This document shows positions 5,199-64,000 of a stretch of 64,000 bases of DNA, piece after piece. The DNA lies in IMG/VR virus record IMGVR_UViG_3300036045_000002, positions 16,086 to 80,085 of that record. One strand, given 5' to 3'. The DNA is from a virus. The notes under the pieces were generated by a model, which saw only the letters and a program-made list of their open reading frames with translations, made no database searches and was not told the origin of the DNA. Position 1 is the first letter of the stretch; each line of letters opens with the position of its first letter. Position numbers and translations under genes: made by a program.

Positions 5199-6197
5199 TC
5201 AGAAGTTCCAGGTCACGTTGATCTTGTCCTCCTCGATCTCGAAAGGCGGGAAGCCGAACACGGCGGCGTACTCCCCACTCCGGATGGTCTGGTCTTGGAC
5301 GTTCCAGTCCACACCGAACACGTTGCCCGGGTAACCGGGCAGGCGAGGGCCGGAGGGGGTCGTCCGGCCCCAGGACTGGTAGTAGGCGAACACCTTCCGG
5401 CCGGAAGGCAGGACCTCGACACCGCACCGGACATGGTAGTGGTGCCACGTCCCGCGAGGCGAGCAGCACCCTTCCGCGTCCCGGGACATGGTAAACCCGC
5501 GGGAGTCGGAGCCGACGATGATTCCTCCGGAAGCGATGGCGTCGGCGGCCTCGGCGGCGGAGGTCACCGGGGTCCACTCGGTGACGATGTTGTCCTTGGC
5601 CAGGTCGTCGATTTTCCTGGCCAGGTCGGTCATCTGCCCGGCCCCCAGCTTGCAGGCCAGATCGTCCGAACCCTCGCCGTAGTACCTGGTGTCGCCGACC
5701 TCCTCCCGGTGGACCAGGCCCATCTTGGCCATCGCCTCGGGGATCGACCCGGAGGCCACGCCGTCGTTGTTGTCGTTCGTCCACGACCCGTTCAGCATGT
5801 TGTACAACTTCCGGGCGTGGTAGTAGAGGCCGGCGTGGCTGACCCGCTTGAACTCGACCCGCTTCCCGGCAGCGATCAGGATGCACTGGACGAGGTCGCA
5901 GGTGGCCGAGCCGGACCGGCCACCACAGGTCCCGCGAGGCTGGTACTGGATCAGGTCCTCGGCCTTGGCCCCCAACACCTTCTCGACCGCCTTCCAGTGG
6001 TTGACGCTCGTCTTGCCGTCCCACTTCCCCTGCATCTTGGGAAACCGCTGGTGGAACGTCGGCTTGGCCTGGATCATCTGGTCCACGTCGGCCGTCTTCG
6101 GGACGATGCCGAAGTTCCAGGCGACGGCGGCCGGGTCGTTCGGGTCGGCCCCGAAGTTGACCACCTTCCTGCCGCCGACCGCGGTGAAGTCGTCCAT
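5199..6197 (-). CDS. Papain-like (C1-type) cysteine peptidase
   Basis: 'Q..RGTC' catalytic Cys motif, His in 'WHHYH', and 'YQSWG' (NSWG-like). Confidence 0.6.
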   Translation of the reverse strand: MDDFTAVGGRKVVNFGADPNDPAAVAWNFGIVPKTADVDQMIQAKPTFHQRFPKMQGKWDGKTSVNHWKAVEKVLGAKAEDLIQYQPRGTCGGRSGSATCDLVQCILIAAGKRVEFKRVSHAGLYYHARKLYNMLNGSWTNDNNDGVASGSIPEAMAKMGLVHREEVGDTRYYGEGSDDLACKLGAGQMTDLARKIDDLAKDNIVTEWTPVTSAAEAADAIASGGIIVGSDSRGFTMSRDAEGCCSPRGTWHHYHVRCGVEVLPSGRKVFAYYQSWGRTTPSGPRLPGYPGNVFGVDWNVQDQTIRSGEYAAVFGFPPFEIEEDKINVTWNF

Positions 6198-7049: not shown

Positions 7050-8603
7050 TCACTTCGCCTTACCCAGACCATTCCTTCGGCCCAGGGCACCGGTCCTCGA
7101 ACCAGGCTTGGTGTCGGCCCGCATCTTGGCGATGGCGACCGGCTGGTCCGCCTTCTCCTTCAACGCGGCGACGATGGCGTCCTCGCCGCCCGACCCCTCC
7201 ACGATGGCTTCCGCCTCCGCGATGGAGAAGTTCAGGACGTGAACCAGGAAGGTCTTCGGCCGCATGACCGCGTAGGACCCGCTGGTGACGTACTGGAGCA
7301 ACGCCTGGGCCTTCTGGAGCGAGACCTTCGCCTTGTCCGTGTCGGTCAGGTTGTTCAGGTCCGGCCAGTAGCAGATGAACCTCGGGACGTCCGGGATCAC
7401 CCCGAACCACTGGAGTCGCTTGACGAACGGCCGGATGACCCGCGGGAACACGAACCTGTCCTGCCGGCCCTTCAGCCGCCTGTTCCAGGTGATCTGGTCC
7501 ATCTGGCTGGCCAGGTACCCGGCCTCCGTGCCCATGAATACCCGCAACGGCACCTTAATGGCCGCGCAGATGAGTTGGAGCAAGGACAGGACGTGGGCCG
7601 TCGGGTCGGCGACCTGGGGGGCCAGGCTCTTGGCCGTCATTCCGACCAGCCGCATGTACCTCTGAAGGCCGAGGGAGTACGCCTCGATCTCCGCCTTGAG
7701 CGAGTCGGTGTTCAACTCCCCCGTGGCCGCGATCTCCGGGAACGCCTCGAAGCTGATGCCCGGGAACGCCCCCTTGTAGAACATTTCCGGGGCCGAGTAG
7801 CTGACCTTCCGGATGCCCAGGATGTCGTTCAACACCGGCCGCAACCGGGGGGTGCCGAACACGTCGCTGGACTTGCAGTTGTCGGCCAGGTGCAGGACCC
7901 GCGTCCAGTGGACCTTCAACTCGTCGGCCTCGGACTTACTGTCCAGGACGAAGTCAGTCCCGTCGTCCGGCCCGGCCACCCGGAACGTGTACTCGGACGG
8001 CTGCCCGTACCTCCGGCTCCTCTGGTTGGTGTTGACCCTCGTGACGGTGAACTGGTCCTCCGAGAACGGCCGCATGTACAGGAACTCTCGCGGCTTCTCC
8101 GGCTGCTTGCCGTCCCAGATGCCCTCCTCGCTCAACCCCTCGATTGACTGGTTGAGCGGCTTGCCGTCGTCGTGGACCATCAGCATGGCCCCGCACCGGC
8201 CGATCCCGGCGGCCTCGTCGAACCGGTGCAGGTAGTGGAACGGGTCGTGGTTGAACACGAACTCGTCCCACACCCGCTCGAACCTGGTCCGCTTCGGCTC
8301 CTCCGTTTCGTAAACTTCTGGTTGGATCGACCACGACTCCTCCGGGTAGACCTGGACGACCCGCGTGGCCACCCCGATCCGTTCGTACATGTGCCGGTAC
8401 AACTCGATGGTCGGCTCGGTCTCGGGGTACCCGCACTCCTTCTCGATGTTCCGCTTCGCCTGGTCGAGTTGGCCGCCGAGCAGCGCCGACGACCTGGACA
8501 GGAGCAGGTTGCAGATGTAATCCGCCCGCCCCTCCTGGTTGGCGATCAACTCCAGCCGGCCGCGGGCCTGGTTGGCGGTCATCCTGGGGGCCCGGCCACT
8601 CAT
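7050..8603 (-). CDS. Portal protein (DUF1073-like)
   Basis: ~517 aa; 'LYRHMYERIGVATRVV', 'VHWTRVLH', 'FGTPRL', 'ICAAIKVPLRVFMG'; upstream of the head genes. Confidence 0.8.
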   Translation of the reverse strand: MSGRAPRMTANQARGRLELIANQEGRADYICNLLLSRSSALLGGQLDQAKRNIEKECGYPETEPTIELYRHMYERIGVATRVVQVYPEESWSIQPEVYETEEPKRTRFERVWDEFVFNHDPFHYLHRFDEAAGIGRCGAMLMVHDDGKPLNQSIEGLSEEGIWDGKQPEKPREFLYMRPFSEDQFTVTRVNTNQRSRRYGQPSEYTFRVAGPDDGTDFVLDSKSEADELKVHWTRVLHLADNCKSSDVFGTPRLRPVLNDILGIRKVSYSAPEMFYKGAFPGISFEAFPEIAATGELNTDSLKAEIEAYSLGLQRYMRLVGMTAKSLAPQVADPTAHVLSLLQLICAAIKVPLRVFMGTEAGYLASQMDQITWNRRLKGRQDRFVFPRVIRPFVKRLQWFGVIPDVPRFICYWPDLNNLTDTDKAKVSLQKAQALLQYVTSGSYAVMRPKTFLVHVLNFSIAEAEAIVEGSGGEDAIVAALKEKADQPVAIAKMRADTKPGSRTGALGRRNGLGKAK

Positions 8604-8911
8604 CGCCTCACCGCCTTCAGTTCGATAGTCTGGTCGTCGTCCCAGCCGTTGCAGGAGAAGACGACCCTCAGGAAGTAAAAGGCGTTCTCGACCAGTGTTG
8701 CCGTTACGGTCCGGTCGATGGTCTGCTTGTAGTTCCCGGCCGACCCGGTGATGTAGGGGACGGTCCCGGAGGTGACCACCGTCCCCCCGTCCTGTGCCGT
8801 CAGCGTGAAGTTGCACGTCCCGTTGTTCAACGGTGCGCCTTCCTCGTCCTTGGCCTTCAAGTACCGGATTCTATGGTCACAGTTGATGTAAATCAACCCT
8901 TTCGCGGGCAT
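8600..8911 (-). CDS. Small Ig-like virion protein
   Basis: 103 aa beta-rich; translationally coupled to the portal gene. Confidence 0.55.
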   Translation of the reverse strand: MPAKGLIYINCDHRIRYLKAKDEEGAPLNNGTCNFTLTAQDGGTVVTSGTVPYITGSAGNYKQTIDRTVTATLVENAFYFLRVVFSCNGWDDDQTIELKAVRR

Positions 8912-16940: not shown

Positions 16941-17141
16941 TCATTCCGGCGGGGGGACGAGGACGACCCGGGTCGTCGCGAAGTCGTAGTACCTTCGGTC
17001 GAGGGCCTGGTCGGTGTACGCCTCGGCCTCCTCCTCCGTCCTGAACAGGAGGGGCCGGTTGTTGTAGCTGACGACAGGCGACCACCGGTCGGGGCCCCCG
17101 TACCCCCTGGACCGGTGCCAGACGACGTACCTCGTGTCCAC
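16941..17141 (-). CDS. Small hypothetical protein
   Basis: GTG after GGAGGAGG; VDTRYVVWH...FRTEEEAEAY. Confidence 0.55.
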   Translation of the reverse strand: MDTRYVVWHRSRGYGGPDRWSPVVSYNNRPLLFRTEEEAEAYTDQALDRRYYDFATTRVVLVPPPE

Positions 17142-17320
17142 GTGGCCCTCCTCCGTGGGAAGGGCGACCTGGACGAAACAAGCCCGTGGCCACCTGTCCG
17201 CCCCCTCGCGGCCCCGGGCCTTTCCGGCCACCCCGGAGGCCGGACCCCGTCCCCGTCCGAACGGAATCCGCCCGCCGGCCCGGGAGGTCGCCTTTCGGCG
17301 GGGCCTGGCCTCACCATTGG

Positions 17321-17737
17321 TCAGGTGAACGCGAGGGCCCCGGACGCCTTCAACGACCCGTCCGGGAGCATGACGACCAGGTAGACCGTCTTGGCCCCGG
17401 CCGCGTGGGTGACGGCGATGTCGATGTCCCCGTCGGCCTCGGACACGGACTCCCCCCGCTTCCCGGTGACCGTCTGGGACGTCCAGCCGTCCGTCCCGCC
17501 GGCGACACCGCCGTCCGGGGCCGTCGCCACCAGCGAGTCCCCGTTGGCGTCGTCGGACAGGAACCACCGGACGTGGCCCCGCACGGCCAGGTCCTTGCCG
17601 CCGCCGTCCTTCAACTGGACGGCCACGGTGATGACGTTCGAGACCTCGGCCCCGATGGTGAAACCGGCGTCGCCCACGGCGGCCGAGGCGTACGGACTCT
17701 TGTTGACGGGGATCTTCGGTCGCACGAACGCTGGCAT
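17321..17737 (-). CDS. Ig-like hypothetical virion protein, first gene of the leftward operon
   Basis: 138 aa beta-rich; GGGAG RBS. Confidence 0.65.
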   Translation of the reverse strand: MPAFVRPKIPVNKSPYASAAVGDAGFTIGAEVSNVITVAVQLKDGGGKDLAVRGHVRWFLSDDANGDSLVATAPDGGVAGGTDGWTSQTVTGKRGESVSEADGDIDIAVTHAAGAKTVYLVVMLPDGSLKASGALAFT

Positions 17738-17781
17738 GGCAGGCTCCCGGGTTCGGGCAGGCGTGACGCCTCGAATCTAGC

Positions 17782-17809
17782 ACCAGGTTGACCTTGAGGT
17801 CAACCTGGT
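17782..17809. repeat. Perfect inverted repeat
   Basis: accaggttgacct-tg-aggtcaacctggt. Confidence 0.8.
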
Positions 17810-17839
17810 AGGCCGGTCTGGCGGGGCCGGCGAAGGCCG

Positions 17840-18730
17840 GTCCTTGCCGGCGGACGAGGCGGGATTTCCGCCGGTAGGAAAATTTCCACAAATTTCCTGT
17901 TTTCGGGTGGTTTTGACCGGTTTTTCGGGCCAATCTCCGGAAAATTTTGGCGTGTCGGCTTGTAGGCTGCGAGAATTCGGCAAGGCCGGCAAAATTTTGG
18001 TAGCCTGGCTGGAACTTGCGATCACTTCGACGGCCACACGCACGTCGTTTCATTGGTTGACACGCACACTTTATATTGCGCACGTACACGCACGCGATCA
18101 AACGACAGCGCTGCCAAGCACTCGCTAGACAATGCGTGCGTGTACAGACGTAATCAAACAACACTAAGCGCGTACGTCTGCGTGCGCAACGTAAGCAGTA
18201 ATGACCGGTCGAGTCGGCGCTCGCACGACCGGCACACGTCAGTGCGAGCGTGCTACACTGCGTACACATACATGCGCTGTCTCTAGACGTTACGAACATG
18301 TGCATGCGCTGTCTAGACACAACACGCTCTGACATCAGTGCTGAGAAACTGCGTGCGCATGCGTGCGCAACGAACTACGCAATGACATCGCTTCGCGTAA
18401 TTGCGTGCGCACAAATGCGCAGTGAACTGCGCAGTGTCGCACTACGTTATACGCACTCGCTGCGCCCCCTCGCAGCGCCCCCACACACTACGTTTGCTCA
18501 CAGACGCGATTAGCTCGCATCTGCTGCGTTTCTGTGCGTGCGCTGTGTCTAGACTCGTCTGCGCCCCGCGCCCCGCAGACGCGAGCTAATGCGAAATTCG
18601 CGACTTCGCGGAATTTCGTGGCCGCGCGGCCGCGATTGGCGCGGCCCTTGCATTACATATGTGCGTCGGGGGCAGACAGCACAAGCGGGCACTTCGCTCG
18701 CACGCGAGGGCCCCCGACGCAGGTCAGGAG
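17840..18730. other. Non-coding control/terminal region with anomalous composition
   Basis: AAAATTTT-type tracts at 17860-18000, then a GG/CC-depleted alternating purine-pyrimidine block; lies between divergent genes. Confidence 0.7.
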
Positions 18731-18736
18731 TTCGTC

Positions 18737-19168
18737 ATGGGTAGCGCGAAGAAGGCGGCGGTCGCGAGCAAGAAGACCCCCAAGGTGGTGGCCGCGCCGG
18801 TTCAGGCCGAGCCGCAGAAGGTCGAGGTCGCGGAGGTCAAGGTCACGACGACGAAGGCCCAGGTCGGGGCGGACGCGCTGCGGGGGCGGGTCAGCTGCCG
18901 CACGCACGCGATGCACGAGGTGCTGGTCGAGGCGTTCAAGAAGGGGTCGCTGGTGAGCACGAAGGACATCGTCGCGGGGGCCCGGGCGCTCCTGGGCGAG
19001 GGGCACGCGAGCTTCGCGAAGCTGGACAAGACGGCCCCCTCGCACCTGAACACGATGAAGGGCCGGGGGTACGTGGAGCGGGTCACGCTCGCGGGGGGCG
19101 ACGGGGTCAGCAGCACAGGGTGGCGGCTGACGGCCGCGGGCGCGAAGCTGGTCGGGCTCGGCGGCTAA
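18737..19168 (+). CDS. Lys/Ala-rich protein with a C-terminal winged helix
   Basis: ATG after AGGAG; 'TAPSHLNTMKGRGYVERV...WRLT'. Confidence 0.7.
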   Translation: MGSAKKAAVASKKTPKVVAAPVQAEPQKVEVAEVKVTTTKAQVGADALRGRVSCRTHAMHEVLVEAFKKGSLVSTKDIVAGARALLGEGHASFAKLDKTAPSHLNTMKGRGYVERVTLAGGDGVSSTGWRLTAAGAKLVGLGG

Positions 19169-19243
19169 GACGCACGAGGAGCGCCCCCCACGGGGGGCGC
19201 TCGCTCTCACCCTCAACCTCACACTCTCTCAGGAGACAAGGTC

Positions 19244-19396
19244 ATGGTCTGGGTGCTCTACGCGACGCGGTGCTTCACGCACGAGGCGGGCCGGTTCGCC
19301 ACGCTAGTCGAGGCCTGGCGGCACATGGAACGGCTGGAGCGGACGAACAACAAGGACGGGTACTTCAAGTTCCACATCGCGCCGGCGGCGGCCTGA
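19244..19396 (+). CDS. 50-aa hypothetical protein
   Basis: AGGAGA RBS; MVWVLYATRCFTHEAGRFATLVEAWRHMERL...; below the ORF-track cutoff. Confidence 0.55.
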   Translation: MVWVLYATRCFTHEAGRFATLVEAWRHMERLERTNNKDGYFKFHIAPAAA

Positions 19397-19539
19397 GCCG
19401 CTCGCGCCGGGCTAGGTCGTCCCTCGGACGTACGGAAGCGCGTCCGAGGGCTTTTTCACCTACGGCCGAGCGGTCGAAAGGACGTGCGACCGCGAACCGG
19501 CCACGCCAGGCGAACGGCCGCACGAAACCTACGCCTCGC

Positions 19540-19712
19540 ACGACCTAAGGTGCGCTCGACCCAAGGTCACCAGTCGAGGTCAGGTGCTCGACCAAAGGTC
19601 GGCGTTGACCAGTCGACCTGAGGTGGAAACCTGCGGAGCGCCCGACCCAAGGTCCTGGTACCGGTAATTCGCGGTCGGGACCGGTTTCTGCCGGGTGCTC
19701 GACCAAAGGTCT
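19540..19712. repeat. Cluster of six GACCnnAGGT iteron-like motifs
   Basis: gacctaaggt, gacccaaggt, gaccaaaggt, gacctgaggt, gacccaaggt, gaccaaaggt, several preceded by GCTC. Confidence 0.75.
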
Positions 19713-20148
19713 GGTTTCGCCGGTTTTTAGCGGAAGTGAGTGGTGCGTACCGCAGTGACGGAAATGACCGGTTTTTACCGGCGTGGTCAGGTTGGTCTGG
19801 TCAGGTGACTAAAAATGCGCCTGCCCCGAGAGGGGGCGCTCCGGACGAAAGTCACGGTCAGGCTACACCTGTCATACCCACACGACCAGCGTACCTGGTC
19901 TGCACACGGCCTAAGGCGTACACGCACGCCTCCTCAGGCGTGGAGCCACGCACGAGACTAGGTGGGAGATCCGGTACAGGGTGTTGACGCCGTTTCGACC
20001 TCCCACGACCTCACTTTTCCTCGATCCTTCTAGGCGGATTTGATTTCCAATTGACCGAATTGCGGTTTCGACTTCCTGCCATGCTTTTCCAGGCGTCCGA
20101 ATCACGGTTGCGCTTCCAATTTACCAACTGACCACAACCACGACCGGG

Positions 20149-21888
20149 TTAGACGAGAGGCGTCAGACACCCGATGCCTCCTATCTGGACTTTCCGTTTG
20201 CCACACACCGAGAAGGCGAGGGCGGCGGAGTCCACCTGGTCCTTGTACCTCCCGAACGGGAAATACTTGTGCTCCTCGACCCAGTTCTCCGCCCAGTCCT
20301 TCCAGGAGTTGGAAATCACGTCCCACTGGTGCTCCGGGAGGTAGACGTTGCCGGCGTTCACCTGGACGCTCCAGGGGTCCGCCCGCTCCTCCTTGCCGCC
20401 CGTCGTCTTGTCCACCTTGATGATGGTCACCCGGTAGCCTCTCAGCGTCCTGGTCGCCGTGTTCTCCGCGCTCTCCTTGCCGCCACTCCCAGGTTCTTGT
20501 TCCACGACCACGCGGACCTTGTACCCGTCCAGTTCGGCCGTCCTCCGGATGAGTTGCTCCCGCTCGAAGCTGTCGTGCCGGAACCTGGTCACGTCCAACA
20601 CCCAGAACCGGCCGTCCGTATCGAGTCCTAGAAGAGTCCCGACCGTGAAAGCGCCCCCGGCCGCCGTGCCGGCCTTGTCCCACGACCTCACAAGATTCTG
20701 CCACTTGTCCGGAGGGCTGCCGTGTTTCAGGCGGTTGACCTTGAACCGTTCGCCTTCCGCCGGGACCGGGTCCTGGAGGAACTGCGAGGCGTAGTATTGC
20801 CCCCCCTTCTGCTTCTCCTCCTTGAGGACTTCCGAGTCCAGGCGGTCGGCGTCCAGGAGGCCGGACTTGTACATCGCCCGGACTTCCGACGGCCGGACGT
20901 TCGGGCCGTCCTCCGCAGGAAGGCAGACGTGACGGACTTTACGCCTCTTGAGGAAGAGGGTCGTCGGGTCGTCCTGGTGGAGGCGTTGCATGACCAGGAT
21001 CATCACCGACACCTTCTTGTCCACCTTCCGGTTGGAGAGCTGCCGGTCGATCCAGTAGTTCACCGTCTTCAGGTCGGCGTCCGACCGTGACTTCAGCGGG
21101 TCGAGGGGGTCGTCTATCGCGATGACGTGGGCGTGCATCCCGGTGACCGTGCCGTTCACCCCGACCGCGTACCGGTACCCGCCGTGGGTGTTCTTGAAGT
21201 ACGTCTTGGTGTTCTGGTCTTCCCGGAGTTTGATCTCCGGGAAGAGCTCCTGGAACCTCTCGGACTGGACGATGTCCCGGGACTTGAGCGACAGGTCGAG
21301 GGCCAGGGTCTCCGAGTAGGAAGCGCCGATGTACCGGCAACTCGGCATGTTCACCCAGCACCAGACCGGGAGCATGACCGAGATGATCGTGGACTTGGTC
21401 GTCCCGGGGGGGATGTTGACGACCAGGTCGTAGAGCTTACCTTTCCCCTCGAAAATCCTCTCGGCCACCAGCTGGAGTTGCTCGCACAGGTACCGGATGT
21501 GCCAGTTCCACACCGGTTTCTCCGCGATGACCACGTCCCAGAAGATCCGGACGAAGTCGTAGAACGAGTCCCGGGCCAGCGACCGTTCCAACTCCTGGCG
21601 GGTGAAGGAAGGCCCCCGGTGTTGGTTCGGTTCCGGTTTCTTCCCGAATAATCTAGACCGGATCTGGCCGGCCTTCCTGGCGCGGACGCGCTTGCGGACG
21701 AGGTGGAGGAGGCGACGCACCTGGCGGATGTCGTGCTTCCGGCGTGTTTCCAACGCCTCAGGCAGTGCCTGTCCGATTCCTTTCAGGCGAGGCGGGATTT
21801 CTGTCAGGCGAGACTCGGAGTCGGACAGGAGCGATTTGTGACGCTTCCTGAGACTGGTGTACGGCAGGACCGACTTCATGGTGGTCAC
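20149..21888 (-). CDS. terL: Terminase large subunit
   Basis: Walker A-like 'IPPGTTKST', Walker B 'VIAIDDP', 'MQRLHQDD', nuclease motifs 'RSWDKA' and 'FPFGRYKDQVDS'. Confidence 0.92.
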   Translation of the reverse strand: MTTMKSVLPYTSLRKRHKSLLSDSESRLTEIPPRLKGIGQALPEALETRRKHDIRQVRRLLHLVRKRVRARKAGQIRSRLFGKKPEPNQHRGPSFTRQELERSLARDSFYDFVRIFWDVVIAEKPVWNWHIRYLCEQLQLVAERIFEGKGKLYDLVVNIPPGTTKSTIISVMLPVWCWVNMPSCRYIGASYSETLALDLSLKSRDIVQSERFQELFPEIKLREDQNTKTYFKNTHGGYRYAVGVNGTVTGMHAHVIAIDDPLDPLKSRSDADLKTVNYWIDRQLSNRKVDKKVSVMILVMQRLHQDDPTTLFLKRRKVRHVCLPAEDGPNVRPSEVRAMYKSGLLDADRLDSEVLKEEKQKGGQYYASQFLQDPVPAEGERFKVNRLKHGSPPDKWQNLVRSWDKAGTAAGGAFTVGTLLGLDTDGRFWVLDVTRFRHDSFEREQLIRRTAELDGYKVRVVVEQEPGSGGKESAENTATRTLRGYRVTIIKVDKTTGGKEERADPWSVQVNAGNVYLPEHQWDVISNSWKDWAENWVEEHKYFPFGRYKDQVDSAALAFSVCGKRKVQIGGIGCLTPLV

Positions 21889-21889
21889 G

Positions 21890-22654
21890 TCACTCCTCCT
21901 TCGCGGGCAGTACCCGGTCGCCGTCCCGGTCCCGGATCTTCTGGAGGAGCTTGCGCCGCTCCTCCACCGGGAGGTCGAGGTCGTCCAACGTAACGACCGC
22001 GTGCCCGACTTGCCCCCGGACGTTCACGTCCACAGACTTCCGCACTTCCTTCTTCGTCCCGTACCCGCGGTCGGCGTTGTACGTCTGGTTGACGAACTTG
22101 ACGAGGGCCGGGTCGCCGGCCTTGACCAGGGAGATGAGTTGGGCCTCGAAGAAGTTCTTCTTGTGCCAGTCCATCTCCCGGACGAGTTCCCCGAACCCCG
22201 GGTCGTCCGTGACCCACCGGTCGAAGGTGATCTTCCGGATGTTGACGGCCCGGCAGGCCTCGGTCGCGTTCCAGTTGTAATGCACGAGGGCGTGGAGGAA
22301 GAGGTGTTGGCGGCCCCGCTTCCCGCAGTCCTTGAGCATCCGTTCCACGTAGGTAATCGGGTTGTTGGTCGGGTCCAGGATGGCCTCCCACACTGGCTTC
22401 AGGTGCTCCGGGAGTTGGTCGTAGACGTACTCCATGTACGTCTGCGCCCCGGCGTCGGCCCTGCGGGCCTCGTCTAAGGCGTACTTGACGGAGTCCCGCT
22501 CCCGCTTCCACTTCCTGAAGGTCGTTTCCGGCACCCCGAGAGCCTTAGCGACGTCCCGGTCGGACATCCCGGTCTTGGCCAGGCGGTAGACGATGAGGGG
22601 GGTCTTGTCCGTGAAGATCCGGTCAGGATGGTCTTTCTTGGTCTTGGCTTTCAC
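21890..22654 (-). CDS. terS: Terminase small subunit (HTH)
   Basis: HTH 'SDRDVAKALGVPETTFRKW'; directly upstream of terL. Confidence 0.75.
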   Translation of the reverse strand: MKAKTKKDHPDRIFTDKTPLIVYRLAKTGMSDRDVAKALGVPETTFRKWKRERDSVKYALDEARRADAGAQTYMEYVYDQLPEHLKPVWEAILDPTNNPITYVERMLKDCGKRGRQHLFLHALVHYNWNATEACRAVNIRKITFDRWVTDDPGFGELVREMDWHKKNFFEAQLISLVKAGDPALVKFVNQTYNADRGYGTKKEVRKSVDVNVRGQVGHAVVTLDDLDLPVEERRKLLQKIRDRDGDRVLPAKEE

Positions 22655-22788: not shown

Positions 22789-22846
22789 TTGTAGTGGTTC
22801 GCGTAATTGCGTATGCTCACGCACGCTGGGCGCACGGCGCGCCCAG
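22789..22846 (+). promoter_or_regulatory. Sigma70-like promoter plus ACGGC-loop hairpin
   Basis: TTGTAG-17-TATGCT, then ctgggcgc-acggc-gcgcccag. Confidence 0.65.
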
Positions 22847-22899
22847 ACAAGGGCGCGAGACGCGCCAATCTAACCACAGAGTCCGTCGTGATTACGACC

Positions 22900-23167: not shown

Positions 23168-23365
23168 ATGGAAGACTGCCAGCGATGCGAAGCCCTCAAG
23201 AGCGCAGGCAAGGTCCTGAGGTGCCGGAAGTGCCTGTTCGACCCGTTCTTCGAGGACGCGCCCCGAGCGCCCCGCGACGACATCGCAAACCCCGCGCCAG
23301 ATCGCGTAGCGTCGCGTCTGGCGCGTTTCCGCGACGCAGACGAGACGAGTCACACGTTCGCGTAG
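23168..23365 (+). CDS. Small Cys-containing protein
   Basis: GAGGAG RBS; CxxC...CxxC. Confidence 0.5.
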   Translation: MEDCQRCEALKSAGKVLRCRKCLFDPFFEDAPRAPRDDIANPAPDRVASRLARFRDADETSHTFA

Positions 23366-28073: not shown

Positions 28074-28134
28074 TTGCTCAGGTCTAACTGCGTCTCTATA
28101 CTGACGTTGTGGGGCGCACGGCGCGCCCCACAAC
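28074..28134 (+). promoter_or_regulatory. Sigma70-like promoter plus ACGGC-loop hairpin upstream of the nusG-like gene
   Basis: TTGCTC-17-TATACT, then gttgtggggcgc-acggc-gcgccccacaac. Confidence 0.75.
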
Positions 28135-29384: not shown

Positions 29385-29502
29385 GACCCAGCGCCAGATC
29401 GCACAGAATCGCGTCTGGCGCGAGGTCGTGTCGAAAGTGAAGTGCGTCACACTTTCGATACGGTCGTTGAACTGACGCGACTCTAGAGCGAAAGGGACTG
29501 CC
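29385..29502. repeat. Dispersed palindromic TCTAGA element, copy B
   Basis: gcgccagatcgcacagaatcgcgtctggcgcg...tcgaaagtg/cactttcga...cgcgactctagagcgaaagggactgcc-GTG. Confidence 0.8.
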
Positions 29503-34502: not shown

Positions 34503-35377
34503 CGTTCGACCAGCTGATGCGCGACCTCGGCGTGGAGGTCAGGCGGCACGGCGAGCACCACCACACCACGTCCGGGTGGGTCAACATCGACTGCCCGTTC
34601 TGCTCGCCGAAGGAGAGGCGGTTCCGACTGGGGTACAACCCGCGGGGCGGGTACTGCTCGTGCTGGACGTGCGGGCCGAAGAACGTCCACGCCGTCGTCA
34701 TGGAACTGACCGGCAAGCCTTACGGCCAAGTCCGGCTCGTGGTCGGCGACCTGGAGAGGACGGTCGTCAAGGACGACATCAGGCCGGAAGGCAAGCTCGT
34801 CGAGCCGAAAGGCGTCGGCCGGCTGCTCACCCCCCACCGGGAGTACCTGAGGCACCGGGGGTTCGACCCGGAGTCGGTGGAAAGGCTGTGGGACGTCCGG
34901 GGGACCGGGATGTTCTGCGACCTGCCGTGGCGGCTGTACATTCCGGTCAAGTACCAGGACGAGACGGTCTCGTGGACGACGCGGGCCTGCTCGGACAGCG
35001 CCAAGACGCGGTACCTGTCGGCCGCGCCAGACCAGGAGAAGGTGCCGTTGAAGTCCATGCTGTACGGCGAGGACTACGTGGTCAACGCGGTCGTCGTGGT
35101 CGAGGGTCCTCTGGACGTGTGGCGGATCGGCCCGGGGGCGGTCGCGACGTGCGGGACGGCGTTCTCCAAGGCCCAGGTTCTCCGGCTGTCGAGATTCCCC
35201 GTCCGGGCCGTCTGTTTCGACTCCGACCGGGCCGCCCAGGCGCGGGCGAAGAAGCTGGCCGATCAACTGGACGTGTTCGACGGTAAGACGTGCGTCGTCC
35301 GCCTCCAGACCGGCAAGGACGCGGCCGAAGCGTCCTCGAAAGAAATCGCCAAACTTCGCCGTCGTTTTCTCGATTGA
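34499..35377 (+). CDS. DNA primase (zinc finger + TOPRIM)
   Basis: CPFC...CWTC; 'VVVEGPLD'; 'CFDSD'. Confidence 0.88.
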   Translation: MTFDQLMRDLGVEVRRHGEHHHTTSGWVNIDCPFCSPKERRFRLGYNPRGGYCSCWTCGPKNVHAVVMELTGKPYGQVRLVVGDLERTVVKDDIRPEGKLVEPKGVGRLLTPHREYLRHRGFDPESVERLWDVRGTGMFCDLPWRLYIPVKYQDETVSWTTRACSDSAKTRYLSAAPDQEKVPLKSMLYGEDYVVNAVVVVEGPLDVWRIGPGAVATCGTAFSKAQVLRLSRFPVRAVCFDSDRAAQARAKKLADQLDVFDGKTCVVRLQTGKDAAEASSKEIAKLRRRFLD

Positions 35378-35432
35378 ACAGGACGACATCGCGCCTGTAT
35401 GCTGACGCGATGTCGTCGCACGGCGCGACGAC
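35374..35432 (+). promoter_or_regulatory. Sigma70-like promoter plus ACGGC-loop hairpin
   Basis: TTGAAC-18-TATGCT, then gtcgtcgc-acggc-gcgacgac. Confidence 0.65.
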
Positions 35433-35455
35433 GCACACACACGAGAGATCGCGAC

Positions 35456-35950
35456 GTGAGCAGCACAGACACAGTACGCGCAAGCACAACGGACCCCAAT
35501 CGTGACGCACTCGGCGCAGGACTCCGGACGAGACAGCATTTCGTCCACTGCGCCGTCAAATCACTCGGTCACGCAGCGCTCCAGGAGATTGCGAAGCGGG
35601 CGCAGGAGATCGCGACGCAAGCCGGCTACGAATTCAACGACAAGACGTTCTCGCCTCAATCGACCAGGACAGCACTGGTCGAGATGCGAGGTAAGGAGTT
35701 CGTCCGGCAGTCTGACGACGGGACCTGGACGTTGACTGATCTGGCGCAGGAAGTGATCGACTCGCCGGAGAAAGACGGACGACAATCGCTATCCAGTTAC
35801 AGGAAGCCGGAGATCGGGTCGAAGCGGCTCATGACCATCGACGACAAGGGACGCGTCCTCATCTCCGGCTTCAACGGCGCATTGGTCGAGGTCGAGTACG
35901 TCTCGGAGAACGAAGTCCGGATCCGGAAGGTCAGAATCGTCCCGATCTGA
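35456..35950 (+). CDS. Winged-helix protein with a C-terminal AbrB/MraZ-like motif
   Basis: 'FVRQSDDGTWTLT'; 'TIDDKGRVLI'; likely GTG start at 35456. Confidence 0.6.
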   Translation: MSSTDTVRASTTDPNRDALGAGLRTRQHFVHCAVKSLGHAALQEIAKRAQEIATQAGYEFNDKTFSPQSTRTALVEMRGKEFVRQSDDGTWTLTDLAQEVIDSPEKDGRQSLSSYRKPEIGSKRLMTIDDKGRVLISGFNGALVEVEYVSENEVRIRKVRIVPI

Positions 35951-35974
35951 CACTCACTACCAAAGGAGTCCGTC

Positions 35975-36499
35975 GTGGCCAAAAGAGTCGTCACCACCCG
36001 GTCGAACTACCAGAAGTGGGTCCTGAAACAGTTCGACCTGCACTTCGGCCGGACGCCGGAGCAGAACGACTTCTGGCGAACGGTATACGACAAGTACGTC
36101 CCTCCGCACGACGTCCTCCGGCTGTCCAGGACGTCGGCCGCCTGCGACAAGAACACGAAAGGCGTTCTAGTCCTGCACTGGCACGCATTCTCGGTGATGT
36201 TCGACCCGAAACTGGAACTCGAATTACAGGTCTCCGGCGAGTATTTCCGGGAGGACGTTCGTGCCGTCGCGATAGTGGACAGAGGAGTCACGGTCGGTTA
36301 CTACCGCGAGCCGGTCCTTGTCGCGAGCCGGGCCTACCATCCAGACTACCGACTGAAACACGTCAAGTTCGGCGTCATGCTGGACTGGTTTCAGGACCTG
36401 GATTGCGAAGTCCGGTTCGAGGAATACAAGGACGACAACTTCCACTTCGAGGCGACCGGCAACCATCACTTCTACGTCGAAGTACCTCGGAAAGACTGA
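35975..36499 (+). CDS. Hypothetical protein
   Basis: AAGGAGTCCGTC leader; 174 aa. Confidence 0.65.
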   Translation: MAKRVVTTRSNYQKWVLKQFDLHFGRTPEQNDFWRTVYDKYVPPHDVLRLSRTSAACDKNTKGVLVLHWHAFSVMFDPKLELELQVSGEYFREDVRAVAIVDRGVTVGYYREPVLVASRAYHPDYRLKHVKFGVMLDWFQDLDCEVRFEEYKDDNFHFEATGNHHFYVEVPRKD

Positions 36500-42667: not shown

Positions 42668-42722
42668 CCGAGGCCGACCAGGAGGGGGCTTGACGGTCCC
42701 CTCCTTTCCCAAGGAGTCTTCC

Positions 42723-43178
42723 ATGCACGCGATCACGGTCACAATCCCGTTCTGCGCCGGCCATCGGGTCCTCGGGCACCAAGGCAAGTGCCAGTACCTG
42801 CACGGCCACAACTACCGGGCGGTCGTAACCTTCGAGTCGGACGGACTCGACCATATGGGGTTCGTGGCCGACTTCGGCGTGGTCAAGGACCGACTCAAGA
42901 CGTGGATCGACTCGGCCTGGGACCACAACTTCATCGCCCACCCCCACGACCCGCTCGTCCAATTGTGGGGGCAAGTAGATGTGGTCGGGGGCCTCTTTGG
43001 CAACCCGGGCCACGCCAGGAAGCCTTACGTCATGAGGTGCCACGGAAACCCGACCGCCGAGAACATGGCGAAGGAATTGGCGACCTTTGCGGCCGAGGTC
43101 GCCAAGGAGAACGAGTGCGACCTGGCTGAGGTCGTGATTTACGAAACCGACACGTCGATGGGTCGGTATGTGCCGTAG
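42723..43178 (+). CDS. queD: 6-carboxy-5,6,7,8-tetrahydropterin synthase
   Basis: 'FCAGHR', 'CQYLHGHNY', 'DFG', 'DH', 'NPTAEN', 'YET'. Confidence 0.92.
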   Translation: MHAITVTIPFCAGHRVLGHQGKCQYLHGHNYRAVVTFESDGLDHMGFVADFGVVKDRLKTWIDSAWDHNFIAHPHDPLVQLWGQVDVVGGLFGNPGHARKPYVMRCHGNPTAENMAKELATFAAEVAKENECDLAEVVIYETDTSMGRYVP

Positions 43179-43227: not shown

Positions 43228-43476
43228 GTGCCGCACGTCGCTAACCCCCCGGCCTACCTGGCCCGCTCGTCCGTCAGCAAGTACGTCCACGAAGGCCGGG
43301 TCGCCAGGTTCGTCGGCGACGGCGCTCCTCTCCCGCCCAGGCCGGCGACCTGCTTCTCACTGGAGCAGGCCCTGACCAACATGAACTGGTCGCTCTCGTC
43401 CATCGACGAAGGCGTCCGGCGAGGCGTCCTGGAGTTCTTCCGCAAGGCCGGCAAGGCCTTCATCCGCATCCTGTGA
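43228..43476 (+). CDS. Hypothetical protein
   Basis: 82 aa; GGAG RBS. Confidence 0.5.
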   Translation: MPHVANPPAYLARSSVSKYVHEGRVARFVGDGAPLPPRPATCFSLEQALTNMNWSLSSIDEGVRRGVLEFFRKAGKAFIRIL

Positions 43477-44225
43477 GGCCGACAGTGAGTGACTCACCGA
43501 TTAAATCGAAACTGGTCGAGCCGGGCCGTCAGAACCTCCAGACGGTCGAGAAGCAAGACCTCGACCCGGGCCGCCCATACGAGGTCTTCAAAGTCTGGAA
43601 GACGATCCAGGGCGAAGGCCCGTTCGCCGGCCGGCCGGCCGTGTTCGTCAGGCTGGCCGGGTGTAACCTCCAGTGCCCGGCGTGTGACACGGACTACACG
43701 TCCCGCCGGGACTTGATGTCCACCCACACGCTGTTCGCGGAGGTCGTCAAACTGGCCACCCGCGGCCTGGTCGTCTTCACCGGGGGCGAGCCTTTCCGCC
43801 AGCGACTCGGGCCGATCGTCCGGGAGTTGATTCACACGGGGGACTACTCCGTGCAGATCGAGACCAACGGCACCCTGTGGGACGAGGACATGCCGTGGTT
43901 CGGCGACCTGACCGTCGTGTGCTCGCCGAAGACGCCGAAGATCCACCCGCTCACGGAGGAGCGGGTCAACTACTACAAGTACGTGGTCGAAGACGGTCAC
44001 ATCGACCCGGTGGACGGCCTGCCGACCCGCGTCCTGGGGGCCCCGTGCGCGGCCCACAAGCCGAGGCCGCACTTCCCCCGGCACAAGGTGTACATCCAGC
44101 CGATGGACAACGGGCCGTGGCTGGGAGGCATGACCGGGAACAACGTCCACGCCGCGGCCGAGGTGTGCATGCGGCACGGGTACACGCTGAGCCTCCAAAT
44201 CCACAAGATACTCGGACTCGAATAG
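43473..44225 (+). CDS. queE: 7-carboxy-7-deazaguanine synthase (radical SAM)
   Basis: 'TIQGEG', 'FVRLAGCNLQCPACDT', 'TGGEP', 'IETNG', 'SPK', 'LSLQIHK'. Confidence 0.93.
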   Translation: MRPTVSDSPIKSKLVEPGRQNLQTVEKQDLDPGRPYEVFKVWKTIQGEGPFAGRPAVFVRLAGCNLQCPACDTDYTSRRDLMSTHTLFAEVVKLATRGLVVFTGGEPFRQRLGPIVRELIHTGDYSVQIETNGTLWDEDMPWFGDLTVVCSPKTPKIHPLTEERVNYYKYVVEDGHIDPVDGLPTRVLGAPCAAHKPRPHFPRHKVYIQPMDNGPWLGGMTGNNVHAAAEVCMRHGYTLSLQIHKILGLE

Positions 44226-44328: not shown

Positions 44329-44907
44329 ATGCTGGTGACACGCCCGCCTCGACCGACCCACCACGAGGCCGTCCAGGCCGTCAAGACGCTCCTCCGGTAC
44401 GTCGGCGAGGACCCCGACCGGGAAGGACTGCTGGACACACCGGAGCGGGTGCTCCGGGCGTACTCCGAACTCCTGGCCGGGTACGACCGGCAGGCCGGGT
44501 TCCAACTCAAGACGTTCGCCGACGGCGTGTGCGACGAAATGGTCGTGGTCAAAGGGATCGAGTTCACCAGCTTCTGCGAACACCATTGGCTGCCGTTCTC
44601 CGGCGTCGCCCACGTCGGGTACCTGCCGGACACACGGATCGTGGGCCTGTCGAAGATCCCGCGACTCGTGGACGTGTTCGCCAAGCGGCTCCAGGTGCAG
44701 GAGAGGATGACCCAGCAGGTTGTGGACGCCTTGCAGGAGTACCTGGCCCCCAAGGGGTGCGGGTGCGTGGTCGTCGCGTCCCACTCGTGCATGTCGTGCC
44801 GGGGCGTCAGGAAGCAGAACGCCACCATGACCACGTCCGCCTTGCGGGGGGCGTTTAAAGCGGACGCTTCGACCCGGGCCGAATTCCTGTCCATCGTGAG
44901 AGGGTGA
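44329..44907 (+). CDS. folE: GTP cyclohydrolase I
   Basis: 'REGLLDTPER', 'CEHH', 'GLSKIPR', 'LQVQER', 'HSCMSCRG'. Confidence 0.95.
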   Translation: MLVTRPPRPTHHEAVQAVKTLLRYVGEDPDREGLLDTPERVLRAYSELLAGYDRQAGFQLKTFADGVCDEMVVVKGIEFTSFCEHHWLPFSGVAHVGYLPDTRIVGLSKIPRLVDVFAKRLQVQERMTQQVVDALQEYLAPKGCGCVVVASHSCMSCRGVRKQNATMTTSALRGAFKADASTRAEFLSIVRG

Positions 44908-46919: not shown

Positions 46920-47041
46920 CGCAGACCCCGCGCCATTCGCTCTAGAATCGCGTCTGGCGCGTTTTCAACTCGAAAGTGACTCTCTTCTCAGTTTCGTCGG
47001 GACCTCGCGCCAGACGCGATTCTAGAGCGAAAGGGACTGCC
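46920..47041. repeat. Dispersed palindromic TCTAGA element, copy D (perfect ~26-bp arms)
   Basis: ttcgctctagaatcgcgtctggcgcg ... cgcgccagacgcgattctagagcgaa, then agggactgcc-GTG. Confidence 0.85.
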
Positions 47042-47780: not shown

Positions 47781-48845
47781 ATGGGTACCTCTGGACAAGG
47801 GCTGAAACGGCTGAAGCGGAACAAGTCGGTCGTGTCCCTCCAAGGCATGGACAGGCAGTGCCGGAGCCTCTGGCTGGACTCCGGAGCCCACAGCCTCTAT
47901 CACCAACACTGCTTCAAAACCGCTACCGTACCAATCAAGAGAAAGGTGGTCGTAGACGGAAAGGAAAAGATTGTCTCGTTCTTCCGGCGGGTCCCGATCA
48001 AGGGTCAGAAAAGGTTCGACTGGTTCGGTAAACCTGACAACCTGTCCAAGGCCTTTATCGCCTACCTGAAGGCCTACGCCGACTTCGTCCGGAAAAACGA
48101 GTCCGGTATCGACTACTACGCAAACGTGGACGTAATTTACAGCCCGGCCTTGTCCTGGGCCGCTCTCAAACACCTGGAGAAGGATGAGGGACTGCGCCCC
48201 GTTCCGATCATTCACCACGGCACCGACTTGGACTGGGTCGAACGCCATCTGAACGCCGGCTACAAATACATCGGGCTAGGTGGCCTGGGCCAGGAATCGA
48301 ACGTCGAGACTTACCACAGAGACACGGACAAGGTCTACAACCTTCTGTGCGATAACAAGGACCGGTTACCGTGTGTGAGGACACACGGGTTTGCGATGAC
48401 CAGCTACAAACTGCTGATCCGGTACCCGTGGTGGTCGGTCGATTCGACCAGCGCCTACCGGGTCGCCGGATTCGGCAGTATATTCCTCCCACACCGCCGG
48501 GCCGGGAAGTGGGACTTCTCTATCGCCCCGTACATCGTCGCCTTCAGCAGCCGGAGTTCGGCCAAAAAAGGGAAAAGGAAGCACATCGCCTACTTTCAGA
48601 ACTCCGACATGAAACTGCACCGGCAGATATTACTAGACTGGCTCGCCGAGATCGACATGCCGCTAGGCGAGATGGGCGAAGATGACGAGGTAATTACCTA
48701 CGGCGTCGCGTCCGAATACAACGCCCGTGCCGTCGCCAACCTGAAGTTCTTCCAGAAACTGTGTGACTGGCTGCCGAAATGGCCGTGGCCGTTCAAGATC
48801 GACACGGACGTGGGCAAGTTCGTTCCGGACCGGAGACTGAAGTGA
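47781..48845 (+). CDS. TGT-fold base-exchange enzyme (DpdA-like DNA transglycosylase)
   Basis: 'LDSGAHS', 'ANVDVI', 'PIIHHG', 'IGLGG', 'HGFAM', 'SVDSTS'; clustered with folE, queD and queE. Confidence 0.7.
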   Translation: MGTSGQGLKRLKRNKSVVSLQGMDRQCRSLWLDSGAHSLYHQHCFKTATVPIKRKVVVDGKEKIVSFFRRVPIKGQKRFDWFGKPDNLSKAFIAYLKAYADFVRKNESGIDYYANVDVIYSPALSWAALKHLEKDEGLRPVPIIHHGTDLDWVERHLNAGYKYIGLGGLGQESNVETYHRDTDKVYNLLCDNKDRLPCVRTHGFAMTSYKLLIRYPWWSVDSTSAYRVAGFGSIFLPHRRAGKWDFSIAPYIVAFSSRSSAKKGKRKHIAYFQNSDMKLHRQILLDWLAEIDMPLGEMGEDDEVITYGVASEYNARAVANLKFFQKLCDWLPKWPWPFKIDTDVGKFVPDRRLK

Positions 48846-56942: not shown

Positions 56943-57679
56943 GGAAGTTCAAATTCGACAAAGGCGTGTTGGTCAACGCCGACTGCCTGGACGTCCTCCG
57001 TCACGTCCGCGAGAACTCGGTGGACCTCATATTCGCCGACCCGCCGTTCAACGTCGGCTACAAGTACGACCGGTACGACGACAGGCGGGACCCCGACGAA
57101 TACCTGTCCTGGTGCGAGAAGTGGATCGCGGCCTGCTGGCAGTGCCTGAGGCCGTCCGGGTCGATCTTCGTCGCCATCGGGGACGAGTTCGCCGGGCACT
57201 TCAAGGTAATCCTGGACACGTTCTTCGACCCGCGGAACTGGATCGTCTGGCACTACACGTTCGGGGTATACTGCGACACCAAGTTCGGGCGTGGCCACGC
57301 CCACGTCTTCTACCACACCAAGGGCAAGAAGGGGTTCACCTGGAATCCGGACGAGATCCGGGAGCCGTCGGCCAGGCAACTCAAGTACAACGACAAGCGG
57401 GCCAACCCCAAGGGCCGAGTCCCGTGCGACGTTTGGAACTTCCCGCGGGTGTGCGGGACGTTCAAGGAGCGGACAGGACACCCGTGCCAGATGCCGGAAT
57501 CGCTCCTCGAACGGATCGTCAAGGTCTCGTCCAACCCGAACGACGTGGTCCTAGACCCGTTCGCCGGCAGCGGGACGACCCTGGCCGTCGCGAACAAACT
57601 CGGCCGACGGTTTATCGGGTGCGAGATTTCCGACGCCTACGCCCGCTCCGCAGCGATCCGAATTCGACGGGGGCGATGA
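56939..57679 (+). CDS. N6-adenine/N4-cytosine DNA methyltransferase (beta class)
   Basis: 'DPPFN', 'HPCQMP', 'DPFAGSGTT'. Confidence 0.9.
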   Translation: MRKFKFDKGVLVNADCLDVLRHVRENSVDLIFADPPFNVGYKYDRYDDRRDPDEYLSWCEKWIAACWQCLRPSGSIFVAIGDEFAGHFKVILDTFFDPRNWIVWHYTFGVYCDTKFGRGHAHVFYHTKGKKGFTWNPDEIREPSARQLKYNDKRANPKGRVPCDVWNFPRVCGTFKERTGHPCQMPESLLERIVKVSSNPNDVVLDPFAGSGTTLAVANKLGRRFIGCEISDAYARSAAIRIRRGR

Positions 57680-63036: not shown

Positions 63037-63148
63037 GTGACCCTGAAGAAGTCGGTACAAAAGTGCCCTTGAACACGTCAGAATTTCCAGATAAGCTCCT
63101 AAAGGCAGATTGGTAGCCCGAAGGTTCCTTCGCCCGGAGGGGCTTCCG

Positions 63149-64000
63149 ATGAGCAGGACCTGGCTGGCGCTGGACGTGAACTACCTGACCTGGCGGGCCT
63201 TCCACGTCTTCGGGGGCCTGTCCCACGGCGGGGTCGGCACAGGCGTCGTCTACGGCGTACTCAAGGACGTCGTGTCCCTGTGCGACACCCACGCCTCCAC
63301 CAACCTGGTGTTCTGCTTCGACCACGGCCGCGAACTGAAGCGGAAGGAGGTCTTCCCGGGGTACAAGGCCCGCCGGCACGGCAAGGTCATGACGGAGGAC
63401 GAGAAGCAGGTTTACCAGGACGTGCAACGGCAGATCAACCTGATGAAGACGGAGTACCTGCCGTACCTCGGGTTCGAGAACGTGTTCTACCAGGACGGGT
63501 ACGAGGCGGACGACATCATCGCGTCGGTGTGCGACAACACCCCGGCGAAGGACGAGGTGGTCGTCGTCTCGGGGGACAAGGATCTGCTCCAACTGCTGTC
63601 GGCCCGGGTGTTCGTCTGGCAGCCTACCCACCGGCAAGTGACGACCGTGAAGACGTTCCAGGACAAGTATTACGGCCTTCACCCGCAGCACTGGGCGCGG
63701 GTCAAGGCCATCGCCGGGTGTTCGACGGATGACGTTCCAGGCGTCAAGGGCGTCGGTGACGCGACGGCCGCCAAGTTCCTCATGGGCCTCAAGACCAACA
63801 AGGCGGACGAGATCGAGGCGTGGCTGGTGAGCAACCAGTATCGCAAAAACCTCGACCTCGTCCGACTCCCGTACACCGGAACGCCTGACTACCCGCCTGT
63901 CCAGGACATGGTGGACACCAAGTGCTGGCGGAAGCTGACCACCAGGCTCGGGATGAAGTCGCTGGCCGACCTGGCCCCGCGGCCGGTCGAAGGGTTCGGC
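63149..64000 (+). CDS. 5'-3' exonuclease/flap endonuclease (runs off the window)
   Basis: Translated by hand: MSRTWLALDVNYL..., 'FCFD', 'YK', 'EADDII', 'SGDKDLLQL', 'D.VPGVKGVG..TA'. Confidence 0.88.
   Translation, partial: MSRTWLALDVNYLTWRAFHVFGGLSHGGVGTGVVYGVLKDVVSLCDTHASTNLVFCFDHGRELKRKEVFPGYKARRHGKVMTEDEKQVYQDVQRQINLMKTEYLPYLGFENVFYQDGYEADDIIASVCDNTPAKDEVVVVSGDKDLLQLLSARVFVWQPTHRQVTTVKTFQDKYYGLHPQHWARVKAIAGCSTDDVPGVKGVGDATAAKFLMGLKTNKADEIEAWLVSNQYRKNLDLVRLPYTGTPDYPPVQDMVDTKCWRKLTTRLGMKSLADLAPRPVEGFG

Follow-up and report, generated by a model that had tools for sequence, protein, structure and literature searches.

The published DpdA enzymes of phages act at motifs of 2-3 nt, with iggy using GA (PMC10484667) and CAjan both GA and GGC (PMC7544227). 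Phages with 7-deazaguanine DNA are in turn restricted by the GmrSD-like GrwAB (PMC12137116). The window analysed here comprises 64,000 nucleotides of the virus record IMGVR_UViG_3300036045_000002 (G000 below; 80,085 bp, of which the window is bases 16086-80085) and resembles these phages in carrying a folE-queD-queE cluster with a TGT-family transglycosylase (phrog_887). It also contains a non-coding block at 18056-18580 that is strongly depleted of the dinucleotides GG and CC. The depletion follows a compositional rule in which GGCGC is spared, recurs in five lineages, is matched by an exemption among palindromes, and co-occurs with the gene cluster. We lean, without strong conviction, towards a DpdA-type system that would modify GG but not GGCGC, with the early or control region being kept unmodified.

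Composition of the block

The block and the longest stretch obeying the rule are positioned as follows.

18056..18580: non-coding block purged of GG/CC; GC 58%; 20 GG/CC observed versus 88 expected
18232..18609: longest stretch without a G-run or C-run outside a GGCGC/GCGCC context; 379 nt, versus at most 130 nt in 19 zone-free genomes

Between 18056 and 18565, 15 GG/CC are found against 83 expected from the block's own base composition (GC 57%), whereas coding DNA has an observed/expected ratio (O/E) of 1.00. An earlier note on this DNA had described the genes as dense in GG/CC, which they are, and had considered that they might be enriched for these dinucleotides to resist restriction, which a ratio of 1.00 contradicts. 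Genome-wide mutational decay of GG is ruled out by the same ratio, maintained despite a GC content at third codon positions (GC3) of 90%. The GG/CC-free runs lie where the note had located them, at 18232-18465 (234 nt), 18115-18205 (91 nt), 18482-18564 (83 nt) and 18056-18114 (59 nt), and the single CC that it had counted within 18057-18203 stands at position 18114. Among 100 first-order Markov simulations of the genome, the longest GG/CC-free run has a mean of 51 nt and a maximum of 72 nt, compared with 234 nt in the real sequence. In a background of approximately 130 loci of other phages, plus 19 additional whole genomes, every 300-nt window has a logP of -6.1 or higher, while the block reaches -14.7.

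The depletion is strand-symmetric, as expected if the responsible agent acts on duplex DNA. Symmetrised GG/CC O/E is 0.14-0.31 in three segments of this kind (hereafter zones), and no other dinucleotide is consistently low. GC and CG dinucleotides are raised in the block and offset the absent GG/CC. GCGC occurs 17 times against approximately 15 expected from the dinucleotide content, so that the GCGC richness of the block is a by-product of that content.

Seven regulatory spacers that the earlier note had likened to the block are also GG/CC-poor (pooled 47 observed versus 125 expected, O/E 0.37), a value that carries selection bias since their coordinates were picked by eye; each of their GG/CC-free runs is at most 70 nt, and CGC comes after one in three of their G-runs. 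Beyond the block, GGCGC/GCGCC words are concentrated in regulatory hairpins and in dispersed palindromic elements of the type GCGCCAGA...TCTGGCGC, at 22829-22862, 28113-28123, 23296-23320, 29385-29417 and 46927-47007. The tolerated word is therefore the one used where regulatory DNA needs G- or C-runs. Additionally, the segment 35374-35950 (GG/CC O/E 0.60) has a promoter, TTGAAC-18-TATGCT, and a GG/CC-poor leader of approximately 100 nt, and an open reading frame (ORF) in the third frame of 35370-35980 yields a translation that looks winged-helix-like by eye.

Recurrence of the rule in other phages and in palindromes

Four further lineages, G001/L153, L005, G010 and G023, have zones of similar character that measure 0.5-2.9 kb. 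A TerL-based search set of 37 IMG/VR loci and 42 metagenome loci yielded such zones in three contig kinds only (G001, L005 and the partially depleted L003). A profile of the DpdA-like protein returned 496 IMG/VR relatives, from which 17 long genomes were scanned for stretches without a G-run or C-run outside the GGCGC context. The longest rule-obeying stretches, and the zone G-runs that have CGC after them, are given below.

G000: 379 nt; 5/10 G-runs
G001/L153: 1943 nt; 29/41 G-runs
L005: 965 nt; 22/23 G-runs
G010: 453 and 222 nt; 38/51 G-runs
G023: 2521 nt; sole G-run without CGC after it
G028: 200 and 108 nt
19 other genomes: at most 130 nt

In four of the five zones, 50-96% of G-runs are followed by CGC, against 1-2% genome-wide (p 1e-7 to 1e-46), with G023 as the exception. 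The rule covers G-runs of any length. G occupies the positions beside GCGC at 15-31%, close to the neutral rate, which means that GGCGC is tolerated and not required; this rate, together with the lack of a wider consensus, rules out positive selection for GGCGC. Masking of GGCGC by a GCGC methyltransferase was rejected, as no cytosine-directed enzyme was found, with no C5 methyltransferase in G000-G004 and no ThyA-like protein.

The zones of the relatives cross coding DNA and affect protein composition. In G001 (72 kb), L153 and L166 bridge the contig ends at 99.9% identity, resulting in one zone of approximately 2.9 kb that holds two genes, of which 704-1291 encodes 195 residues with no Gly, one Pro and one Trp; single-nucleotide polymorphisms among G001, L153 and L166 are too few to test ongoing selection. 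The L005 zone, approximately 1 kb long and recovered again as L131, consists of a promoter, a gene, a terminator and a divergent promoter. Where Gly codons occur in the L005 and G010 zones, they are written GGC-GCN or GGG-CGC (GGC-GCC in G010). The G023 zone (IMGVR_UViG_3300003154_000004; L309:8741-11004 plus L305:1-270) contains one GG/CC versus 229 expected over 2.5 kb, and its proteins of 157 and 173 residues are devoid of Gly, Pro and Trp. Flanking this zone is a segment very rich in C-runs (L309:8500-8740). No similarity is seen for the G023 terminase, and the protein of G001 1470-2021 is homologous by BLASTP to none of the zone proteins of G023 and G010. As zones cross genes, every GG/CC occurrence appears to be selected against, not merely those in protein-binding sites. 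The earlier proposal that protein-binding DNA avoids GG thus fits the purged control block and is too narrow for the relatives, whose zones cover whole small genes.

Zone-bearing genomes range from 43 to 64% GC, which suggests that these phages have different hosts, and wherever assessable all of them, G023 included, carry the same DpdA clade as G000. This clade is common to all four whole genomes whose zone is strong, across that GC range, which points to a phage-encoded agent. FolE and the DpdA-like protein are present in G000-G003; FolE is lacking in G004, G005, G006 and G009, and G004 is also without the DpdA-like protein. No zone is found in cluster-less relatives, nor in any of the 62 loci with a homologue of the neighbouring 138-residue gene, which served as a background set.

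A second signal comes from 6-bp palindromes, whose avoidance in G000, G001 and G002 is unusually broad, with many at 0-25% of expectation. The fractions depleted more than 4-fold are listed with the GGCGCC counts on both strands.

G000, cluster present: without GG/CC 13/30, with GG/CC 0/13; GGCGCC 0 versus 96 expected
G001, cluster present: without GG/CC 20/48, with GG/CC 0/13; GGCGCC 0 versus 56 expected
G002, cluster present: without GG/CC 22/48, with GG/CC 1/12; GGCGCC 0 versus 22 expected
G005, cluster absent: without GG/CC 5/39, with GG/CC 7/10; GGCGCC 0 versus 25 expected
G006, cluster absent: without GG/CC 19/35, with GG/CC 6/11; GGCGCC 56 versus 54 expected

In the three cluster-bearing genomes, 42-46% of palindromes without GG/CC are depleted more than 4-fold, and the within-genome contrast with GG/CC palindromes has Fisher p values of 0.003 (G000), 0.003 (G001) and 0.015 (G002). 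Comparison of GG/CC palindromes between cluster-bearing and cluster-less genomes gives p = 6e-7. For example, GTCGAC, CTCGAG, ACGCGT, TTCGAA, TGCGCA and GCGCGC stand at 0-10% of expectation in G000, and also in G001 and G002. Palindromes containing GA or TC show no exemption. GGCGCC, which ranks first or second among under-represented hexamers in G000 and G001, is the lone purged GG/CC palindrome and corresponds to the GG context tolerated in the block, so that the two signals match one rule. This pattern is the outcome that would be expected of a GG-directed protective modification skipping GGCGC.

Gene layout and the 7-deazaguanine cluster

The G000 genome (99% complete, GC 64%) has no blastn match in INPHARED, and its TerL is at most 42% identical to those of cultured phages. 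The contig ends (window 63110-64000 and genome 2-565) share one split gene whose parts match adjacent G001 segments; this, with a gene order syntenic with relatives, identifies the contig as a circular permutation. The IMG/VR label of the record is 'linear'. A genome terminus inside the block finds no support, given the circular permutation, the bridging of the G001 break by L153 and L166, and the lack of terminal overlaps. The block is part of a divergent control region of approximately 960 bp, arranged as follows.

From 17737 downward, minus strand: arm left of the block, with genes for the portal (7050-8816), the major capsid protein, a protease and a protein of 1038 residues
17321..17737, minus strand: first gene of the leftward arm, 138 residues; no family match; GG/CC O/E 0.99 (normal)
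17774..17809, minus strand: sigma70-like promoter of the leftward operon, TTGACC-18-TAGATT, read from 17803 to 17774; overlaps a perfect 13+13-nt palindrome at 17782-17809
17810..18055: flanking A/T-tract array bounded by GG/CC (GGAAAATTTCC, CCGGAAAATTTTGG); GG/CC O/E 1.16
18737..19168, plus strand: first gene of the rightward arm, 143 residues; basic N-terminus; normal GG/CC
19244..19396, plus strand: small downstream gene, 50 residues, from GC3 frame analysis and the ORF list
20149-21888, minus strand: terL (phrog_38, E 8.5e-83), approximately 1.6 kb from the block
21890-22654, minus strand: terS (HTH_23 and terminase small subunit PHROGs)

A/T-tract arrays similar to that at 17810-18055 also flank the zones of G001, G002 and L005. 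The 143-residue protein probably contains a winged-helix domain, an assignment that serves as a lead only; it has no close relatives in IMG/VR, and the sole homologue returned is P0002. Beyond terL and terS lie the rightward early, replication and 7-deazaguanine genes. The terminase genes face the control region in G000 but face away from it in G001 and L005, and the module appears to have been inverted or relocated between lineages while staying 1.6-3.2 kb from the zone. The 750 bp that separate terL from the small rightward genes (19400-20148) are non-coding and carry repeated GACC(A/C)AAGGTC-like words and CCGGT/ACCGG units, and the equivalent position in G010 carries CAGTCA(A/G)AACC repeats (L262:17180-17290); a role in packaging or recombination is possible for this segment. 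The minus-strand structural arm contains a tRNA-Arg (anticodon TCG) at 6061-6159.

The modification genes are all on the plus strand.

42690-43178, plus strand: QueD (Pfam PTPS, 1.3e-28)
43473-44225, plus strand: QueE-like radical SAM protein (Pfam Radical_SAM, 1.2e-7)
44329-44907, plus strand: FolE (Pfam GTP_cyclohydroI, 9.9e-71)
47781..48845, plus strand: candidate DpdA-type guanine transglycosylase, 354 residues (phrog_887, queuine tRNA-ribosyltransferase, E 1.2e-28)

The DpdA candidate contains an LDSGA motif, and sequence alignment shows D33 (in LDSGA) and D221 (in SVDS), possible catalytic aspartates of the TGT fold, to be invariant across four homologues. It has no Pfam TGT match at 1e-3 and no PDB sequence match, and its identity to annotated phage queuine tRNA-ribosyltransferases is at most 34% (tblastn). 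A lineage-specific second DNA modification function is present at 57020-57652 (genome 73105-73737), an N6/N4 DNA methyltransferase (PF01555, E 1e-60) found in G000 and G004 only among G000-G004.

Explanations and comparison with known systems

In the favoured mechanism, FolE, QueD, QueE and the DpdA-type transglycosylase would replace G in GG contexts by a 7-deazaguanine derivative, G-runs with CGC after them would escape replacement, and the modification would shield the GG/CC-containing restriction sites of the genome. The control region, from which the packaging and structural arm runs leftward and the early and replication arm rightward, would be unmodifiable on both strands, as selection would have removed the target dinucleotide and left no GG/CC except in GGCGC; in relatives, the zone would span the whole first small operon. 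Two benefits can be envisaged. DNA read first after injection would be recognised through an unaltered major groove, with TGCGCA-type repeats, divergent promoters and, in relatives, immediate-early genes as the targets. Additionally, the zone would give no target to defences that recognise 7-deazaguanine DNA. DpdA as the agent, GG as its motif and the reason for an unmodified zone are what we infer from the sequence data; the earlier suggestion of a GG-directed DpdA-like enzyme is thereby strengthened by the palindrome exemption in G000, G001 and G002 and by the confinement of zones to the DpdA clade, with the modification itself still a prediction. It is also possible, at a lower level of confidence, that some hypermodified phages maintain a programmed modification-free window, that is, an immediate-early or control cassette purged of their own DpdA's target, GG (GGCGC being a non-substrate), to the point of encoding proteins free of Gly, Pro and Trp.

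Several observations weigh against this reading. The modification and its motif are deduced from composition alone, and an enzyme blocked by only one of 64 possible 3' trinucleotides would be unusual. No queC was recognised at the first reading of the window, the present analysis having made no search aimed at it, and the modified base is therefore probably not preQ0. A DpdA that replaces every G would have no motif, but complete replacement is hard to reconcile with the strong avoidance of palindromes that contain G and not GG. G003 has the cluster and neither zone nor palindrome avoidance, G002 shows only a weak 200-nt depletion though its DpdA is the closest to that of G000 among the terminase relatives G001-G004, and 13 of the 17 further genomes of the DpdA clade are zone-free. 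In the comparison of phages with and without the cluster, which the earlier note had proposed, no zone is found in cluster-less relatives, and most genomes of the clade lack one. G015, G017 and G020, of the same clade, show strong palindrome avoidance and no GG exemption; that the target motif may differ between DpdA subclades is an assumption. GGWCC words (CGGACC, GGACCA, CGGTCC, GGTCCA) are approximately 2-fold under-represented in G000 despite containing GG and CC, and among the 4-bp palindromes of G001, GGCC is depleted most strongly (0.65). Sigma70-like promoters elsewhere in the window have GG/CC in their spacers. The constrained DNA is non-coding in G000 and a neighbouring operon in its closest relative G010 (TerL 62%, DpdA 50% identity), where the operon is led by an orthologue of 18737-19168 (38% identity, E 3e-18); as the G000 gene itself is normal, the constrained segment shifts between close relatives. 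Finally, CAjan has no block free of its known DpdA motifs, and the palindrome test has little power in that phage.

An unlikely explanation, and the strongest of the alternatives, is that the depletion arose incidentally from closely packed binding sites (repeats of an origin, operator or packaging region, such as TGCGCA and TGCGCTGT..CTAGAC) that lack GG/CC by chance, with no link to modification. The repeats in question, three families and many inverted repeats within the block, include the following.

18077..18433: seven TGCGCA palindromes (18077, 18183, 18354, 18364, 18406, 18416, 18428) within 12-20-nt alternating purine-pyrimidine runs; candidate operator or iteron motif
18258-18288, 18290-18320 and 18524-18554, plus strand: 31-nt repeat in three copies ending TGCGCTGT..CTAGAC (family D2)
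18456..18481, plus strand: tandem CTCGC(T/A)GCGCCCC units, with GCG preceding their C-runs (family D8)
18509..18590: long inverted repeat with 16-nt arms, 94% complementary, around GCGCCCCGCGCCCC (pair I6); forms in both RNA folds

Seven of the nine TGCGCA sites of G000 lie in the block, as do 18 of 35 in the zone of G023, and the block holds 6 of the 15 CTAGAC matches in the window (both strands). As regards an iteron-type origin, the block has imperfect repeat families of 31-38 nt that are 71-76% identical, and its flank contains A/T tracts but is 57% GC. The position between divergent promoters and beside a probable winged-helix gene, and the proximity of the terminase genes in G000, G001, L005 and G010, agree with such an array. 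However, the repeats fill only part of the block and the spacers between them are equally free of GG/CC, while in G001, L005, G010 and G023 coding sequence lies inside the zones and protein composition is distorted. No motif is common to all zones, CTAGAC being absent in L005 and TGCGCA in the zones of G001, L005 and G010, and the GGCGC rule and the palindrome exemption are left unexplained. CTAGAC was rejected as a shared motif, its enrichment being confined to the G000 block, and a cluster of sigma70 promoters in the zones was likewise rejected, showing no excess over shuffled sequence.

Slightly less probable is a host defence that reads GG or CC, such as a clustered regularly interspaced short palindromic repeats (CRISPR) system with an NGG or CC protospacer-adjacent motif or a short-motif nuclease, focused on the first-entering or most-exposed DNA and independent of any phage modification. 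Absolute and strand-symmetric avoidance would suit single-hit lethality, the zones match short transcription units of early appearance (in L005 a promoter, a gene and a terminator), and phage T5 offers a precedent. Against this, the rule and its GGCGC exception span phages of 43-64% GC with presumably different hosts, cluster-less relatives are zone-free, and assemblies continue through the zone, so that nothing places it at a physical end. Moreover, the block is enriched in palindromes avoided elsewhere (TGCGCA 7 in the block versus 2 elsewhere in G000, GCATGC 2 versus 5, TCTAGA 3 versus 9, together with CGTACG and AGCGCT) and is therefore not restriction-proof leader DNA.

A constraint at the RNA level, in which immediate-early transcripts or a non-coding RNA of the block would lack GG/CC, for example to evade an endoribonuclease or spurious Shine-Dalgarno pairing, has little probability. 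It would agree with the L005, G001 and G010 zones being co-extensive with transcription units and with the GG-less GAGAG that precedes the G001 zone genes in place of a canonical GGAGG-type ribosome-binding site. GG and CC are nevertheless lost from both strands, including stretches without an evident transcript; an Rfam scan of 17000-19500 gives chance-level matches only (E 0.3-0.65, far under gathering scores), folding z-scores of the two strands are -2.0 and -1.95, and the genome-wide palindrome pattern is unexplained.

Selection for Z-DNA or cruciform propensity, the alternative named in the earlier note, is very improbable. It fits G000, where purine-pyrimidine alternation is 0.697 against 0.598 +/- 0.021 from GG/CC exclusion alone, inverted repeats are numerous, and the block contains 6 of the genome's 11 alternating runs of at least 12 nt (four of them 15-20 nt). 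It fails in the relatives, where alternation equals that produced by GG/CC exclusion alone (0.560 versus 0.573 in G001, 0.569 versus 0.583 in L005) and the G001 zone is purine-rich on one strand, and it leaves the GGCGC rule and the coding zones unexplained. An assembly artefact or chimeric insert is scarcely credible, as G000 is a single assembly but its genes follow one another across the block without a break, in synteny with G002 and G010, the independent assemblies L153 and L166 contain the G001-type zone at 99.9% identity, and the trait is present in five lineages.

If GG-directed modification is correct, GG would be modified, GGCGC unmodified and the zone unmodified. The target motif of an uncharacterised DNA-modifying enzyme would then be readable from sequence alone through two footprints, the restriction sites that a genome no longer avoids and the place where the motif is forbidden. 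Base hypermodification would have a local cost, sufficient to alter non-coding DNA and even the choice of amino acids in early proteins; together with a new DpdA specificity, this would imply that blocked protein read-out or exposure to modification-dependent defence is managed by sequence design. For an uncultivated phage family, which has approximately 500 relatives of the DpdA clade in IMG/VR, the block would point to a candidate immediate-early cassette, and zones would provide a searchable signature of natural segments that stay readable in otherwise modified genomes.

Compared with the DpdA systems of CAjan and iggy, G000 shares, beyond the gene cluster, an inferred 2-nt target context and an inferred protection of restriction sites that contain the motif. 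It differs in that recognition of GG in nearly any context save before CGC, the motif deduced for G000, has not been reported, and in that palindromes with their GA motif are not exempt. The purging of many 6-bp palindromes from G000, G001 and G002 resembles restriction-site avoidance in phages generally; in these genomes, unlike the usual form, it applies only to sites without GG/CC, and the block reverses the pattern of its own genome, with abundant GCGC, TGCGCA and TCTAGA and a purge of GG/CC.

Phage T5 first-step-transfer DNA lacks EcoRI sites and is likewise a defined segment with early functions that lacks a sequence common elsewhere in its genome. In G000 the missing item is a dinucleotide rather than a 6-bp site, the segment holds palindromes that are avoided elsewhere, and the sequence does not support a position at a genome end. 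GATC clusters at oriC and at the phage P1 pac site form methylation-sensitive control regions, and the block would resemble them if the modification state of a short motif in a control region governs protein read-out. Whereas oriC and pac concentrate their motif, the G000 block excludes it, and in the relatives the exclusion extends over genes.

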